47,469 nucleotides of DNA from a virus (IMGVR_UViG_2877274432_000010), one strand, 5' to 3'; counted from the stretch's first letter, positions 5,921 through 19,175 are shown. Translations and numbers: made by a program. The notes: generated by a model from the letters alone, not told the origin.

Positions 5921-6139
5921 ATGGTTACATTATTTAGAAAAAAATATCCGCGAAAGAGTAGAACAACAGAATTCCTGTTTCTCATTCTGTTTATCGTGTT
6001 GATGACACCGATATCCCCGCAAATTTTTGTCTGGATAATCGGAAAAATAATTGAGCCAGTTATTGAATTGTATAACGACGTGGTATGGGCGTCATTCAAC
6101 ACACTGCACAATAAAATTAATCCGTATAAGGAAAGCTGA
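5921..6139 (+). CDS. Small hydrophobic hypothetical protein
   Basis: 72-aa ORF with a hydrophobic central segment (FLFLILFIVLMTPISPQIFVWIIG); coding status uncertain. Confidence 0.3.
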   Translation: MVTLFRKKYPRKSRTTEFLFLILFIVLMTPISPQIFVWIIGKIIEPVIELYNDVVWASFNTLHNKINPYKES

Positions 6140-6506: not shown

Positions 6507-7168
6507 CTACTATTACCAAAGAGCGACTGCAATGGCTGGCTAACATTTCTGGCCGCGATGATATTGACGATATAGACGGCGGTGAAATTCGTGAACTGGC
6601 GCTTATCGCTCTGGCATCACTGGAAGCAGAGCCTGTAGCGGAATGCATTGTTGAAGATGGGGGCATGTGTATTGATGGGTTCGGTGAGTATGTGGGTCAC
6701 TCGCTGCCTGATGGAATGCATGAGCTTTATGCTGCCCCGCGAATGCGACAACCTGATGGATGGAAAGCCGTAGCTGTAGCGTGGAAGGTGACGTTTACTC
6801 AAGTTGACCAGGAATCTAATACGTTCACTGCTATATATTTTTACAAAGCGGAAGTTGAGCGTTGGGTACGACTGCATAAAGCATGTGATTTTCGGGCAGA
6901 TATAACACCGCTTTACGCAGCGCCGGCAGTGCCGGTTGCAGTAAACGACGACATGGCTTACGCATTCCATCACGCACTGTCAGATTCATCGCTTGGCTCT
7001 GATGAAATCGAAGAAATTAAAACCGGTTTGCGTGCTGCCTTTGCCAACGTCACTATCCAACCAGAGCCGATAGTGCCGGATGAAATCGGGCCAAACGATA
7101 GTAATACGTTTGATTATGTTGATGGCTGGAACGCCTGCCGCGCTGCCATGCTTAAGGGAGATAAATAA
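6503..7168 (+). CDS. Hypothetical phage protein
   Basis: 221-aa ORF, start overlaps previous stop (ATGA coupling). Confidence 0.5.
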   Translation: MTTITKERLQWLANISGRDDIDDIDGGEIRELALIALASLEAEPVAECIVEDGGMCIDGFGEYVGHSLPDGMHELYAAPRMRQPDGWKAVAVAWKVTFTQVDQESNTFTAIYFYKAEVERWVRLHKACDFRADITPLYAAPAVPVAVNDDMAYAFHHALSDSSLGSDEIEEIKTGLRAAFANVTIQPEPIVPDEIGPNDSNTFDYVDGWNACRAAMLKGDK

Positions 7169-8631: not shown

Positions 8632-8648
8632 TAGGTAATGACTCCAAC

Positions 8649-9152
8649 TTACTGATAGTGTTTTATGTTCAGATAATGCCCGATGACCTTGTCATGCAGC
8701 TCCACCGATTTTGAGAACGACAGTGACTTCCGTCCCAGCCTTGCCAGATGTTGTCTCAGATTCAGATTATGTCGCTCAATGCGCTGAGTGTAACGCTTGC
8801 TGATAACGTGCAGCTTTCCCTTCAGGCGTGATTCATACAGCGGCCAGCCATCCGTCATCCATACCACGACCTCAAAGGCCGACAGCAGGCTCAGAAGACG
8901 CTCCAGTGTGGCCAGAGTGCGTTCACCGAAGACGTGCGCCACAACCGTCCTCCGTATCCTGTCATACGCGTAAAACAGCCAGCGCTGACGTGATTTAGCA
9001 CCGACGTAGCCCCAATGTTCGTCCATTTCAGCGCAGACAATCACATCACTGCCCGGTTGTATGCGCGAGGTTACCGACTGCGGCCTGAGTTTTTTAAGTG
9101 ACGTAAAACCGTGTTGAGGCCAACGCCCATAATGCGTGCACTGGCGCGACAT
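8649..9152 (-). CDS. insB: IS1 InsB
   Basis: 167-aa ORF. Confidence 0.85.
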
Positions 9153-9346
9153 CCGACGCCATTCATGGCCATATCAATGATTTTCTGGTGCGTACCGGGC
9201 TGAGAGGCGGTGTAAGTGAACTGTAGTTGCCATGTTTTACGGCAATGAGAGCAGAGATAGCGCTGATGTCCGGCAGTGCTTTTGCCGTTACGCACCACGC
9301 CTTCAGTAGCGGAGCAGGAAGGACATCTGATGGAAATGGAAGCCAC
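9071..9346 (-). CDS. insA: IS1 InsA
   Basis: 91-aa [25 protein letters not shown]... Confidence 0.85.
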
Positions 9347-9479
9347 GCAAGCACCTTAAAATCACCATCATACACTAAATCAGTAAGTTGGCAGCATTAC
9401 CCTGTTAGTATTGGCATTAATTCTGGTATACTACATAACGGGCTGAACACCCATTCTACTGCGCCAGCGGAGAACTACG

Positions 9480-13208: not shown

Positions 13209-13285
13209 GGCCCTTTAGCTCAGTTGGTCAGAGCGAGCGACTCATAATCGCCAGGTCGCTGGTTCAAGTCCAGCAAGGGCCACCA
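13209..13285 (+). tRNA. tRNA with CAU anticodon (Met or Ile2/lysidine type)
   Basis: Cloverleaf with 7-bp acceptor stem GGCCCTT/AAGGGCC, anticodon loop CTCATAA, T-loop GGTTCAAGTCC, 3' CCA; resembles E. coli ileX but diverged. Confidence 0.75.
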
Positions 13286-13286
13286 A

Positions 13287-13363
13287 CCACCACTAGCTCA
13301 TCCGGATAGAGCATCAACCTTCTAAGTTGACGGTGCGAGGTTCGAGTCCTCGGTGGTGGGCCA
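13287..13363 (+). tRNA. tRNA-Arg (UCU)
   Basis: Acceptor CCACCAC/GTGGTGG, anticodon stem TCAAC/GTTGA, loop CTTCTAA, T-arm CGAGG-TTCGAGT-CCTCG, CCA end. Confidence 0.8.
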
Positions 13364-13365
13364 GC

Positions 13366-13441
<76 letters not shown>

Positions 13442-13444
13442 TAT

Positions 13445-13519
<75 letters not shown>

Positions 13520-13633: not shown

Positions 13634-15238
13634 ATGATTCAGCTATCCAGTAGTCACAAACTTCCAGCAGTCTACTATCTCTACCAGCGTAACGGCGTCT
13701 ACTACTTCCGTCTTAGGGTCAGACAATCAAACAATGATAGAATGACCTCAATATCATTACGGACCAAGGATAGACGCACCGCTATGGCTTACTCAAGGCA
13801 CATAAAGGCAGCACTCAAGGCAATACACGCAGACAGACCCAACGCTACCTATGAGGAAATGAGGGAACACCTTAAGGACATCGCTGAGTGTGAACTGTCT
13901 ATGGGCCGTTCAGATCTCTTTGAGCCTGACATGAGGGATATCTACCGGGACCAATACGGAGAACTTGGTGAGAGCCTTACCGATGCTCTGGCTAGTGAGC
14001 CGCTAAGCATTGACCAGCATCGTTACATCAATGAGGCCCTGAAGGTGCTAAAAGCCTGTATGAGGCGTATCGAAGCGGGAGACAGTCAGCCTCTGATAGA
14101 TTACGTCGATCTTTTTAATGATATTGATAGGCAAGATAACCAAGCAGACTCTGTGTCCCTATCTGTTAATGCTCCAGAAGTAAAACCAGAAGTTACGCCT
14201 AGCATTACCATAGCGAGCCTCTTTGAACAATACGAAGCGGAGAACTATCAGAACTGGAAGCCTGCAACCTTAAGGGAAAACAAGGCGTCACACGCTGCGT
14301 TAATCGAAATATTCGACCATCTGGGTCTCAATGCAGACGCTAACAGGGCTGACATGCTTAGGGTCCGTGATGTGCTCCAGCAGTTACCTAGGAACCGTAA
14401 GCAGCGCTTCAAGGATGTCCCACTTGCTGACCTGTTGAGCCGTGAAGATAAGACAGATTGTCTGGATGTCGTTACCATCAACAACAAGTATCTTATTAAG
14501 ATGGCTGCTGTCTTTAGGTGGGCTGTGCGCAATGACTTGATTAAAAAGAACATGACTGAGGGTCTGGAGCTTAAAGTCCCTCAGCGTAAAGCCTCAGGGG
14601 CCCGTAACGCCTTCTCTACGGAGCAGGTGGGGCAACTACTGGTCGCAGCTAAGGCATACTCTCAGAAGACCTCTGGTAAGCCGTATCATTATTATGTTAC
14701 CGCCTTGGCTGCTATCACTGGGGCGAGACTCAATGAAATAGCCCAACTACAGGTCAAAGACGTCAGGACCACTGAGGCGGGAACCGTTTATATTCATATC
14801 AATGAAGACGATAGTAGTCTACCCGGTAAGAGCATCAAGAACGCTCATAGTGACCGCTGTGTGCCTCTGGTCGATGGGGCCTATGGTTTTATATTGGCTG
14901 ACTTTATGGCGCTTGTAGAGACCCGTAGAGGCGCTGACGGTGATGACGCTATGGTGTTCGATGGTCTGCGTCTCATGAAGAACGGTTACGGTGAGCAGGT
15001 GAGTAAATGGTTTAATCGGACGTTGTTGCCTAAAGTCCTCGTAGACCGTAGCGGCTTAGCGTTTCACTCGTTTAGACATACAGTTGCGGCCCAGTTAAAA
15101 CAACATGGGGTCGAGTTGGCGTATGCACAGGCGATCATGGGGCATAGTTCAGGGTCTATTACGTACGACCGTTATGCTAAAGAGGTCGAGGTTGATAGGC
15201 TGGTCAATGTGATGGCTGATGTTTATAAGGAGACCTAG
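13634..15238 (+). CDS. Tyrosine site-specific recombinase (integrase), 534 aa
   Basis: C-terminal catalytic region with HSFRHTVAAQL...HSSGSITYDRYA pattern (R, H-x-x-R, Y); starts 114 bp after the tRNA-Gly 3' end in the same orientation. Confidence 0.8.
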   Translation: MIQLSSSHKLPAVYYLYQRNGVYYFRLRVRQSNNDRMTSISLRTKDRRTAMAYSRHIKAALKAIHADRPNATYEEMREHLKDIAECELSMGRSDLFEPDMRDIYRDQYGELGESLTDALASEPLSIDQHRYINEALKVLKACMRRIEAGDSQPLIDYVDLFNDIDRQDNQADSVSLSVNAPEVKPEVTPSITIASLFEQYEAENYQNWKPATLRENKASHAALIEIFDHLGLNADANRADMLRVRDVLQQLPRNRKQRFKDVPLADLLSREDKTDCLDVVTINNKYLIKMAAVFRWAVRNDLIKKNMTEGLELKVPQRKASGARNAFSTEQVGQLLVAAKAYSQKTSGKPYHYYVTALAAITGARLNEIAQLQVKDVRTTEAGTVYIHINEDDSSLPGKSIKNAHSDRCVPLVDGAYGFILADFMALVETRRGADGDDAMVFDGLRLMKNGYGEQVSKWFNRTLLPKVLVDRSGLAFHSFRHTVAAQLKQHGVELAYAQAIMGHSSGSITYDRYAKEVEVDRLVNVMADVYKET

Positions 15239-15326
15239 AGGAGACCATAGTCTAGGATGACACTTACTACAGACCTGTGTGGTCATGTTTTTGACTCATA
15301 GTTTTCTCTACTTGTCAAGTGATAAT

Positions 15327-15349
15327 TAATACGACTCACTATAGGGAGA
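15327..15349 (+). promoter_or_regulatory. T7 RNA polymerase promoter consensus (copy 1)
   Basis: Exact TAATACGACTCACTATAGGGAGA; predicted +1 G at 15344, transcription rightward. Confidence 0.7.
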
Positions 15350-15447
15350 AGGGACACAAAAAGTTTTCTCTTCTAGGATGACACTTACTACAGACCTGTG
15401 CGGTCATGTTTTTGACTCATAGTTTTCTCTGCTTGTCAAGGGGTAAT

Positions 15448-15470
15448 TAATACGACTCACTATAGGGAGA
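15448..15470 (+). promoter_or_regulatory. T7 RNA polymerase promoter consensus (copy 2)
   Basis: Exact TAATACGACTCACTATAGGGAGA. Confidence 0.7.
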
Positions 15471-15567
15471 AGGGACACAAAAAGTTTTCTCTTCTAGGAT
15501 GACACTTACTACAGACCTGTGTGGTCATGTTTTTGACTCATGGTTTTCTCTACTTGTCAAGGATAAT

Positions 15568-15590
15568 TAATACGACTCACTATAGGGAGA
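15568..15590 (+). promoter_or_regulatory. T7 RNA polymerase promoter consensus (copy 3)
   Basis: Exact TAATACGACTCACTATAGGGAGA. Confidence 0.7.
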
Positions 15591-15620
15591 AGGGACACAA
15601 AAAGTTTTCTCTTCTAGGAC

Positions 15621-15987
15621 AACTAACCGTAACTTATCGCATCCTTTCAGGGGCGGGATGACCAATTACAGACACCAAGCGTTCTACTTAAAGTGAATGC
15701 TTCCTGTGTGCTCTGGGTCAGTCGATAAGTGAATAGCAATAAGACACAATCATCTTAATTATGGTCTCTAGTCCCTACAGGGGCTTAACTTAAAGTTAAC
15801 TTAAAGACACAATTAAAGATTAACTTATAGTATTACTTAAAGTTAACTTAAAGACACAATTAGAGATTAACTTTAAGTATTAAATAAAAGATTTAATTAA
15901 AGACCAATTAAAGATTAACTCTAAGGGAATACCTTAAGGGGTGATGATATTTATAATAATCAATCACCAAACCTATAGGTCTTCTCT
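15621..15987 (+). repeat. AT-rich region with short tandem repeats (TTAACTTAAAG / AAAGATTAACT modules)
   Basis: Two ~47-bp tandem units at about 15797-15890 and further degenerate copies; no ORF; region ends at the IS911 insertion. Confidence 0.75.
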
Positions 15988-16059
15988 TGAAGTGGCACAC
16001 TGAATTTGGCCACCTGAACAGAGGTGATATGCTCACCTCAGAACAACACAGGTGCTCCA

Positions 16060-17882
<1,823 letters not shown>

Positions 17883-18110
17883 TCTAGGGTCTCTCTATAG
17901 GTCTTCTCTATGGTCTCTCTATAGGTCTCTCTAGGGTCTCCTCTAGGCATTACCCCCAGAAGCTAACTCTATGGCCCTCTATGGTCCTCTATGGCCCTGT
18001 ACGTCATTCTTTAGGATGCCCTGTAGTTTCGTATAGCCTGATGCCTAGAGAGACCCTAGAGAGACCCTAGAGTGGCTCCTAGAGAGACCCTCCCAGTAGC
18101 TCCGCACAGC
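17883..18110 (+). repeat. Arrays of a 13-bp motif (GGGTCTCTCTAGG-like) in direct then inverted orientation
   Basis: Direct copies at 17883-17945, CTATGGNCCT x3 in the centre, inverted copies CCTAGAGAGACCC x3 at about 18048-18100; the same motif also flanks the left side of IS911 (15965-15987). Confidence 0.8.
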
Positions 18111-18251: not shown

Positions 18252-18407
18252 ATGTCTCAACAACCACAACAACCACAACAAGAAATCAGCATCATTAACC
18301 TCGACCAGCTTGTGTCCATGACCTCAGTTGAAATTGCTGAGCTGACAGGCAAGGAGCACCGAAATGTCCTTCGTGATATTCGTAAGATGCTCGAAGAACT
18401 TAACGCG
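18252..18407 (+). pseudogene. Rha-family phage regulatory protein, N-terminal fragment truncated by IS1
   Basis: SMTSVEIAELTGKEHRNVLRDIRKML matches the Rha N-terminal motif; frame runs into the IS1 end at 18408. Confidence 0.55.
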
Positions 18408-18462
18408 GGTAATGCTGCCAACTTACTGATTTAGTGTATGATGGTGATTTTAAGGTGCTTGC

Positions 18463-18738
18463 GTGGCTTCCATTTCCATCAGATGTCCTTCCTGCTCCGC
18501 TACTGAAGGCGTGGTGCGTAACGGCAAAAGCACTGCCGGACATCAGCGCTATCTCTGCTCTCATTGCCGTAAAACATGGCAACTACAGTTCACTTACACC
18601 GCCTCTCAGCCCGGTACGCACCAGAAAATCATTGATATGGCCATGAATGGCGTCGGATGTCGTGCCAGTGCACGCATTATGGGCGTTGGCCTCAACACGG
18701 TTTTACGTCACTTAAAAAACTCAGGCCGCAGTCGGTAA
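18463..18738 (+). CDS. insA: IS1 InsA
   Basis: 91-aa ORF. Confidence 0.85.
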
Positions 18739-19160
18739 CCTCGCGCATACAACCGGGCAGTGATGTGATTGTCTGCGCTGAAATGGACGAACATTGGGGC
18801 TACGTCGGTGCTAAATCACGTCAGCGCTGGCTGTTTTACGCGTATGACAGGATACGGAGGACGGTTGTGGCGCACGTCTTCGGTGAACGCACTCTGGCCA
18901 CACTGGAGCGTCTTCTGAGCCTGCTGTCGGCCTTTGAGGTCGTGGTATGGATGACGGATGGCTGGCCGCTGTATGAATCACGCCTGAAGGGAAAGCTGCA
19001 CGTTATCAGCAAGCGTTACACTCAGCGCATTGAGCGACATAATCTGAATCTGAGACAACATCTGGCAAGGCTGGTACGGAAGTCACTGTCGTTCTCAAAA
19101 TCGGTGGAGCTGCATGACAAGGTCATCGGGCATTATCTGAACATAAAACACTATCAGTAA
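18657..19160 (+). CDS. insB: IS1 InsB
   Basis: 167-aa ORF (MSCQCTHY variant). Confidence 0.85.
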
Positions 19161-19175
19161 GTTGGAGTCATTACC

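Follow-up and report, generated by a model that had tools for sequence, protein, structure and literature searches.

Phage T7, the virulent phage of the textbooks, is also a workhorse of biotechnology, and to our knowledge no natural satellite of it is known. T7 replicates plasmids that carry a T7 origin, pac and a terminal repeat, packages them as multimers and transduces them, according to a statement in PMC13236587 that cites Chung & Hinkle (1990). PICMI of the Vibrionaceae and the marine VEIMEs are tiny integrase-bearing satellites of virulent phages; they travel as concatemers in full-size helper capsids, depend on a DNA motif for packaging, and have no capsid-remodelling genes (PMC10803314; PMC9618062; PMC11389934). 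These are the nearest known kinds to the element described here, and they differ in having their own primase and AlpA genes and no promoters for a phage RNA polymerase (RNAP). Neither native T7-group promoters in islands nor satellites of the T7 group are described in the literature searched, in which coverage of subscription journals was limited. Here we analyse a stretch of 47,469 nucleotides from a virus (IMGVR_UViG_2877274432_000010; hereafter the window), in which an initial annotation had noticed three perfect T7 promoters in tandem. We find that the promoters belong to a small integrative island and propose that islands of this kind are probably minimal satellites of T7-group (Studiervirinae) phages, that is, a natural "T7 phagemid". 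Their mimicry of the cis-acting signals of these phages is established at the level of sequence.

Exactly three copies of the 23-bp T7 consensus promoter (-17 to +6), TAATACGACTCACTATAGGGAGA, are present in the window, all free of mismatches and on the + strand, one per unit of a direct repeat (Table 1), just as the initial annotation had it. No other site appears in the window at three or fewer mismatches, nor any in 100 shuffles, and over 23-27 bp the three copies equal T7 phi6.5, phi9, phi10, phi13, phi17, and phiOR. Point substitutions between the units are visible in the sequence. That they are diverged natural copies rather than vector DNA is borne out by matches to the array region in 92 of 5,426 complete E. 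coli genomes, all of them chromosomal, and by the lack of any match among 72,556 plasmid records or to vectors. The same prophage-borne locus is found at 99-100% sequence identity in three independent public assemblies; of these, L008 and L010 carry three units, L009 carries one and also lacks an insertion sequence (IS) of the IS3 family, and other copies of the array have one to three. Because independent assemblies carry the array with differing unit numbers, we regard it as real and its copy number as strain-variable.

The initial annotation described a host locus built for an incoming T7-type RNAP. We judge the purpose right; the locus, instead, is a small mobile island with its own integrase, lodged in a prophage-borne tRNA-Gly gene, and the array is best read as the promoter and origin module of a decayed copy of this island. 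The 3' end of the tRNA-Gly(TCC) gene (13497-13519, TTCGATTCCCGCTGCCCGCTCCA, by pattern search) forms the attL core, and the sequence after it is the left arm that follows glyU in the intact copy of FT130 (L001). The key evidence lies beyond the annotated coordinates, at 14149-14168 within the integrase gene and at 15785-15968.

The whole island is matched in 385 of the 5,426 complete E. coli genomes, always in the chromosome. An integrase alignment retrieved 14 further loci from other Enterobacterales, namely Klebsiella, Citrobacter, Enterobacter, Buttiauxella, Shimwellia, Pectobacterium, Serratia, Rouxiella, Lonsdalea, and Edaphovirga, and the window integrase shares 71-89% identity with those of all related islands. 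The family integrates in tRNA-Gly genes. In FT130 (4.28 kb) and 14EC001 (L002; 4.20 kb), the island lies between the 3' end of tRNA-Gly(CCC) (glyU) and a 23-bp direct repeat; other copies measure 4.16-4.45 kb or about 6.4 kb, the intact range being 4.2-6.5 kb, and att repeats are 17-23 bp long across islands. E. coli O103:H2 12009 is a further carrier of an intact island. After excision, attP would consist of right arm, core and left arm, for example ...CGATAC-TTCGATTCCCTTCGCCCGCTCCA-TGACCTTTC... The gene order is integrase, often an overlapping DUF4145 gene, one to four phage-type promoters, a non-coding leader of 0.5-0.9 kb, a DNA-binding gene, cargo, and attR. The DNA-binding gene comes in four interchangeable types: KilA-N, Rha, a 163-aa Ant-like protein, and a 161-aa protein. 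The islands thus have their own integration module (integrase and att sites) and no virion or terminase genes. Scans of their open reading frames (ORFs) against Pfam, PHROGs, and PADLOC gave no hit to replication, capsid, or terminase families and left most cargo proteins without assignment. Of the PICMI core, alpA, prim, and fis are absent and only an integrase is shared, the other ORFs being KilA-N, Rha, or unassigned. As already annotated near the array, there is no single-subunit RNAP gene, and no T7-type replisome or virion gene either, in any of the 4.2-6.5 kb islands. The annotation was also correct that no ORF lies immediately downstream of the promoters, the cause being that an IS3-family element has inserted there (15988-17877); where relatives are intact, the leader is succeeded by a KilA-N or Rha-type gene.

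Phage-type promoters recur across the family. A loose T7-group promoter-core pattern found 17 sites in 11 of the 14 foreign loci, against a chance expectation of about 0.65 estimated from the information content of the pattern; every site is on the integrase strand, 50-1000 bp past the gene, and none falls elsewhere in some 170 kb. Specificities vary by host and include T7-type, K11-type (perfect AATTAGGGCACACTATAGGGAGA), T3-like, and CTTAACTATCACTATAGGGAGA, the last agreeing with the phiOR region found in Kayfunavirus phages that infect Citrobacter, Cronobacter, Enterobacter, and Shigella. Several types stand side by side in single islands, as in L004 (8384-8963) and L011 (7036-7612), where three specificities lie within 600 bp: a perfect T7-type site, K11-type sites (one perfect, one with 1 mismatch), and AATTAGGTAGCACTATAGGGAGA. 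Such a battery suggests a range of several helpers. All phage-type promoters of the islands point at the KilA-N/Rha gene and cargo. Sigma-70-like sites, by comparison, are not enriched in the islands (8 found, 8.5 expected).

Similarly, the islands mimic the ends of T7-group genomes. A BLAST comparison with T7, one of the checks suggested in the initial annotation, found likeness only in the promoters and the end motifs. Window positions 14149-14168 (CTCTGTGTCCCTATCTGTTA) equal T7 149-168 at 20 of 20 bases, which in T7 are the end of the terminal repeat and the first bases of unique DNA. The shared motif of the islands is CTCTGTGTCCCT/ATCTGTT (a slash here stands between repeat end and what follows), with ATCTGTT at 14161-14167 in the window. 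ATCTGTT is the class II pause and termination signal of T7 RNAP at the concatemer junction (10.1101/2021.01.11.426313). The combination of repeat end and pause signal, ...GTGTCCCT/ATCTGTT, is present in the window and conserved in all islands; the junction motif is likewise kept in T3 and in K11, where the annotation reads "concatemeric junction". In every island it occupies the same position in the integrase gene, on the + strand, and codes for S-V-S-L-S-V in a hypervariable linker. Codon use there is restricted, Leu being always CTA or TTA, Ser always TCT, and Val GTT or GTA; in invariant Leu columns of the integrase, by comparison, CTA makes up 7.7% of codons and an average of 3.3 different codons is used. 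The protein alignment behind this comparison was partly spoiled by misalignment of the linker, and the motif was then anchored directly on DNA.

The opposite boundary is found at the other end of the island. About 255 bp before attR, islands carry TTTAAAATTTCCCACAAAAATCTCAGCGTCTA/TCTAATAGT...TTCCCCCATA, a repeat-start motif of the form AAAAATCTGAG...TA/TCTAAYAGT...CCCCC that aligns with the start of the right-hand terminal repeat (the mature left end) of T7, T3, and K11. Local-alignment scores are 32-60 in 11 islands, compared with 22-30 for shuffled queries and 20-28 for the opposite strand. The motif is always on the + strand and near attR, and it is also present in all 10 of 10 further E. 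coli loci. As the left-end cleavage region (...AAAAATCTGAG...TA/TCTCAYAGT...CCCCC) it occurs in 11 intact relatives and not in the window.

Promoter type and end motifs vary together. Junctions of the Kayfunavirus phages SH4 and K1F read ...GAGTCCCT/ATCTGTAT, and exactly those islands with Kayfunavirus-type promoters read ...GTCTCCCT/ATCTGTAT, that is, ...CCCT/ATCTGTAT. Islands with T7- or K11-type promoters read ...GTGTCCCT/ATCTGTTA, or have AACTCT, GCGTCCCT, or GCGTCCTT followed by ATCTGTT(A/G). The repeat-start follows suit, that of Kayfunavirus-type islands best matching SH4, down to GACGATGAGTTTTG, and that of T7-type islands best matching T7. Three separate signals thus change with the T7-like genus of the host, a pattern difficult to account for if they do not act in concert with that phage.

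A T7 origin consists of a T7 promoter and, after it, an AT-rich stretch in which transcripts made by the RNAP serve as primers for T7 DNA polymerase. The window has the same succession: after the promoters comes a stretch of low GC content (19-30%) at 15785-15960, with TTAAAG-type repeats. The AT-rich repeats of the islands score 35-47 against the primary origin of T7 (T7 5929-5995, just after phi1.1B; block-shuffle maximum 26-30) and 38-45 against the K11 sequence past phiOR (block-shuffle 29), and they exceed block-shuffle controls against the left-end region of T3. Against the T7 region past phiOL, L001 is significant (41 against 25) and the window is not (33 against 32). Next to the repeats stands a palindrome, GGTGAT-(AT-rich, 14-17 nt)-ATCACC, which occurs at T7 39329-39354 and T3 37538-37563 and at the equivalent place in L001, L002, L004, and L011; the right ends of K11 and SH4 have palindromes that look similar by eye and are not identical. 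Folding energies of the palindrome as a hairpin are weak. Chung, Nardone and Hinkle (1990, part III) reportedly described a hairpin intermediate near phiOR, to which GGTGAT...ATCACC might be linked. Between promoters and repeats, the non-coding leader keeps 90-100% identity among E. coli, Rouxiella, and RIT691 islands, and 80% when a Klebsiella-type island is compared; it is better conserved than the integrase. It can fold as a multi-stem RNA of about 100 nt (z=-1.9, with few compensatory pairs and weak covariation) and is possibly a structured leader RNA, an RNase III site, or an origin core. An Rfam scan of the island region gave only tRNAs above threshold.

Once the island is circularised, these elements fall on one strand in the order promoter(s), AT-rich repeats, phiOR-type palindrome, genes, repeat start, attP, the 5' third of the integrase gene, and repeat end with ATCTGTT. 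Order and orientation are those of a T7 concatemer junction region, with the island genes where T7 has gene 19.5. The two boundaries delimit a pseudo terminal repeat, about 925 bp in L001, that spans attP, so that only an excised circle or head-to-tail concatemers would contain it whole.

We propose the following life cycle, which we consider, with moderate confidence, the most likely mechanism; its excision, replication, and packaging steps are deduced from the arrangement of motifs. The RNAP of an infecting phage, which escapes the phage's shut-off of host transcription, would fire the island promoters, expressing the island genes and priming T7-type replication in the AT-rich region. The excised island would replicate as head-to-tail concatemers, at whose junction motif T7 RNAP would pause and the phage terminase would cut the two mimic sites. 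Normal T7 capsids would then take up multimers of about 39 kb, as they do with engineered T7 phagemids. In a new cell, the terminally redundant DNA would circularise, the integrase would be expressed, and the island would integrate at tRNA-Gly. For the family as a whole, the balance tips, if not by far, towards widespread protein-minimal satellites of virulent T7-group phages that work by promoter, origin, and junction mimicry only, keep attP within the packaged terminal repeat, set their helper range by swappable variants, and ferry anti-phage genes such as RAZR among Enterobacterales. The initial annotation had offered a phage-triggered switch, a replication or packaging signal of a satellite, and a promoter decoy without ranking them; we favour the satellite for the origin-like sequence and the two terminal-repeat boundary motifs that co-vary with promoter type. 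The size of the island as a fraction of the T7 genome was also tried as an argument and rejected. Nine units of 4.2-4.45 kb or six of 6.4 kb make about 39 kb, a figure that does not discriminate because nearly any unit fits some multiple within the tolerance of the capsid.

Several observations weigh against a satellite. T7 degrades host DNA quickly, so the escape of the island would have to be fast. An exact 44-mer across the attP junction had 0 hits in IMG/VR and JGI metagenome contigs; a 37-mer of promoter plus transcript hit three short metagenome contigs, collinear with the integrated form; and a contig look-up by exact protein returned chromosomes only, all with integrated forms, because the tool favours long contigs. 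No recognisable excisionase was found in the islands, and neither a terminal-repeat start nor attR exists anywhere in the window, IS1 having cut short the island there. The pseudo terminal repeat, at about 925 bp and including coding sequence, is long beside the 160-277 bp of phage repeats. The S-V-S-L-S-V stretch could be partly conserved for protein reasons. Finally, many relatives carry RAZR, which is triggered by the T7 or T3 portal, and this seems at odds with a need for those capsids; RAZR may exclude non-helper phages or act late.

The evidence also has to be weighed against other origins and functions. The 23-bp promoter is the sequence used in expression vectors, which speaks for contamination by a cloning vector or an assembly artefact; this is scarcely credible and was ruled out by the chromosome, assembly, and plasmid comparisons above, the flanks moreover being island-specific sequence conserved across genera. 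A better case can be made for a defence cassette that phage RNAP triggers and that is never transferred, its promoters switching on toxic or defensive genes (for the KilA-N/Rha protein, a membrane protein, or other cargo) when T7 RNAP arrives and its mimics serving as decoys for polymerase, replisome, and terminase. The family often carries RAZR/PD-T7-4 (PMC9519451; PMC13017515), the phage promoters all face the KilA-N/Rha gene with its neighbouring cargo, PD-T4-2_B is a weak match of the KilA-N protein (E=4e-5), there is no enrichment of host-type promoters, and the IMG/VR, JGI metagenome, and assembly look-ups yielded no free or packaged form. Expression, however, needs a promoter alone, which leaves unexplained why the two repeat boundaries, the origin-like region, and the phiOR palindrome are conserved, stand in the right order and orientation, and vary with the helper, and why attP is positioned inside the pseudo-repeat. 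RAZR itself lies upstream of the phage promoters and is therefore not driven by them, and the distribution over many genera, att sites intact, speaks for efficient horizontal transfer. We thus think it unlikely that defence is the whole story; a defence or decoy function is possible and compatible with a satellite, since most satellites also interfere.

More improbable still is an inert deletion remnant of a temperate T7-like prophage at tRNA-Gly, in which the signals would be fossils without function. Its attraction lies in the integrase, whose only full-length phage relatives occur in Pseudomonas phages of about 40 kb (30-32% identity, 97% coverage, E=4e-63). The one relative checked, vB_PsyP_3MF5 (L045, Warsawvirus), belongs to the Studiervirinae; its integrase gene has phiOR on one side and the right terminal repeat on the other, and the island layout resembles an expanded phiOR-to-junction region. 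As for decay, BLAST against T7 finds no fragment of any T7 gene in the island, and this lack, together with cargo and signals diversified across genera, argues against an inert relic. The compact architecture, its att repeats intact, recurs in at least 10 genera together with exchanged cargo and promoters that match local phages, and such recurrence requires ongoing selection and transfer rather than decay. Likewise, the promoters are still perfect and vary in copy number, and the non-coding leader is more conserved than the integrase.

The copy in the window keeps the integrase, the junction motif, the three promoters, the origin-like region, and the palindrome (Table 1). Disrupted by IS elements and lacking its right end, it is probably not mobilisable; T7 RNAP can probably still transcribe it, with predicted starts at 15344, 15465, and 15585, but it is no longer packageable. 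L009 joins position 15987 straight to 17878, the two flanks of the IS3-family insertion, and IS1 cuts the Rha-type gene at about 18408. The remaining Rha-type fragment shares 93% identity with the L005 Rha protein at its N-terminus.

Table 1. Features of the island in the window and, where a locus number (L) is given, in related loci
Feature	Position	Strand	Basis
tRNA-Gly(TCC), last of a 4-tRNA cluster	13445..13519	+	ARAGORN
Island integrase, tyrosine recombinase, 534 aa	13634..15238	+	Pfam Phage_integrase E=2e-17
Mimic of T7 terminal-repeat end and junction signal, CTCTGTGTCCCT/ATCTGTTA	14149..14168	+	20/20 identity to T7 149-168
Tandem array, 121 bp x3.1, one T7 promoter per unit	15251..15619	+	Tandem Repeats Finder, 96% matches
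T7 class III consensus promoter TAATACGACTCACTATAGGGAGA, copy 1	15327..15349	+	exact match
T7 promoter TAATACGACTCACTATAGGGAGA, copy 2	15448..15470	+	exact match
T7 promoter TAATACGACTCACTATAGGGAGA, copy 3	15568..15590	+	exact match
Conserved non-coding leader, first ~170 nt transcribed from last promoter	15620..15790	+	cross-island conservation
AT-rich TTAACTTAAAG-type repeats, origin-like, GC 19-30%	15785..15935	+	Tandem Repeats Finder, composition profile
Palindrome GGTGATGATATTTATAATAATCAATCACC	15940..15968	+	counterpart of GGTGAT...ATCACC ~100 bp past phiOR
IS3-family insertion, not part of the island, interrupting its non-coding region	15988..17877	+	ORFs
Iteron-like short tandem repeat arrays, island-specific	17878..18091	+	Tandem Repeats Finder; position homologous to L001 repeats 15860-15990
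5' fragment of first promoter-driven island gene (Rha-type DNA-binding protein)	18252..18407	+	Pfam Phage_pRha E=6e-10
Leader in relatives	L001 15499-15670; L013 9318-9479; L019 9401-9566		
64-76-aa ORF	L016 10947-11141; L015 3973-4167; L014 10628-10834; L005 10033-10233; L004 9971-10201		
RAZR, abutting or overlapping integrase stop	L004 7745-8377; L005 7735-8394; L006 4259-4888; L007 4260-4901		
Integrase/end region of Pseudomonas phage vB_PsyP_3MF5	L045 39105-41608		

The setting of this copy deserves some remarks. Its tRNA gene closes a cluster of Met-CAT, Arg-TCT, Thr-TGT, and Gly-TCC (13209-13519) inside a region resembling a lambdoid prophage. The same island type thus occurs at chromosomal glyU (tRNA-Gly CCC), where nearly all relatives are attached, and, as in the window, at the phage-borne tRNA-Gly(TCC). 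The window bears IS1 copies at 8634-9402, ~18408-19175, 27633-28400, and 44237-45005, together with IS2/IS3-like fragments; such an IS load is typical of Shigella-like genomes. The IS3-family element has an internal tandem duplication of about 646 bp, its orfB copies (16389-17228 and 17158-17874) sharing the C-terminal ~230 aa; this duplication is missing in the otherwise identical assembly L008.

Other islands add details of their own. In L012, L018, L019, L021, and L024 (at ~6780-7000 in each), no tRNA stands upstream and the island lies behind a degenerate att core and the right arm of another element, which indicates tandem island arrays at one site. Iteron-like arrays consist of 13 copies of GATGACCATAGGC in L001 (15050-15215) and, in the window, of TCTCTATAGGTC-type repeats, CTCTATGGCC, and CCTAGAGAGAC; L001 also has AATCAATACG three times (16003-16046) ahead of a degenerate promoter, CAATACGACTTACTAATAGGAGA. 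Directly after the KilA-N/Rha-type gene, many islands encode a conserved ORF of 64-76 aa (MIDPRTPEGR...LRYRGLPT), a candidate excision factor. It had no family hit and is missing from L001 and L002.

The DUF4145 gene of the islands is PD-T7-4/RAZR (E=8e-99). PD-T7-4 is a validated anti-T7 system, of which Vassallo et al. remarked that its genes "often overlap an integrase gene" (PMC9519451); under its present name, RAZR, it is known as an abortive-infection RNase activated by the portal proteins of T7 and T3 (PMC13017515). Neither paper mentions adjacent native T7-group promoters or end mimics. We find RAZR in the relatives L004-L007, L011, and L036. In L004, L006, and L007 the gene stops a few bases short of the first phage promoter, and in L005 its last bases are overlapped by the first promoter-like site. 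The system, composed of ZFD and DUF4145 (HEPN), is absent from the window, L001, and L002, and in the window the promoters follow the integrase directly.

If the proposal is true, this would be the first natural parasite reported for the T7 phage group. Wild E. coli and Shigella strains can harbour perfect T7 promoters and T7 packaging signals. If the islands are mobilised, a mobile element would spread by an integrase and copied DNA signals alone, outsourcing its transcription, replication, and packaging, and genes, those of defence systems such as RAZR among them, would pass between Enterobacterales by way of strictly lytic T7-like phages. Hitcher and helper could be paired from sequence alone by matching promoter type and junction motif. 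RAZR would be placed in its native context, and the islands would offer natural, evolution-tested designs for T7 transducing particles.

To take the known systems in turn, relatives of the window's island encode RAZR directly after, and overlapping, the integrase, as Vassallo et al. noted, with the difference that RAZR emerges here as optional island cargo. Phage vB_PsyP_3MF5 shares a related integrase (32% identity over 97%) beside phiOR and a terminal repeat, and the same junction motifs, but it is a complete 40-kb phage with RNAP, replisome, and virion genes, of which the island has none. Its junctions read ...GTGTTCC/TATCTGTAAG and ...AAAAATCTGAGAGCC/CATCTCACTCAG and show how broadly the signals are conserved. 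The end region of such an integrase-bearing phage is a plausible ancestor of the island.

Like PICMI and the VEIMEs, the island is very small, bears an integrase, and has no capsid-remodelling genes. It differs from them in that induction and replication seem to be left to the RNAP and replisome of the helper through promoter and origin mimicry, and in that its helpers would be Studiervirinae and its hosts are Enterobacterales. The T7 phagemids and the plasmids of Chung & Hinkle have the same cis-acting set (a promoter with an AT-rich origin, and a junction with both boundaries) and need no phage genes in cis. The predicted outcome is also the same, replication by T7 proteins and multimers of about 40 kb that are packaged and transduced (PMC13236587). 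Unlike those constructs, the island is natural, chromosomal, and self-integrating by a tyrosine integrase at tRNA-Gly; its ~925-bp pseudo-repeat holds attP and part of the integrase gene, and the family adds promoter batteries for several phage genera as well as cargo and defence genes.

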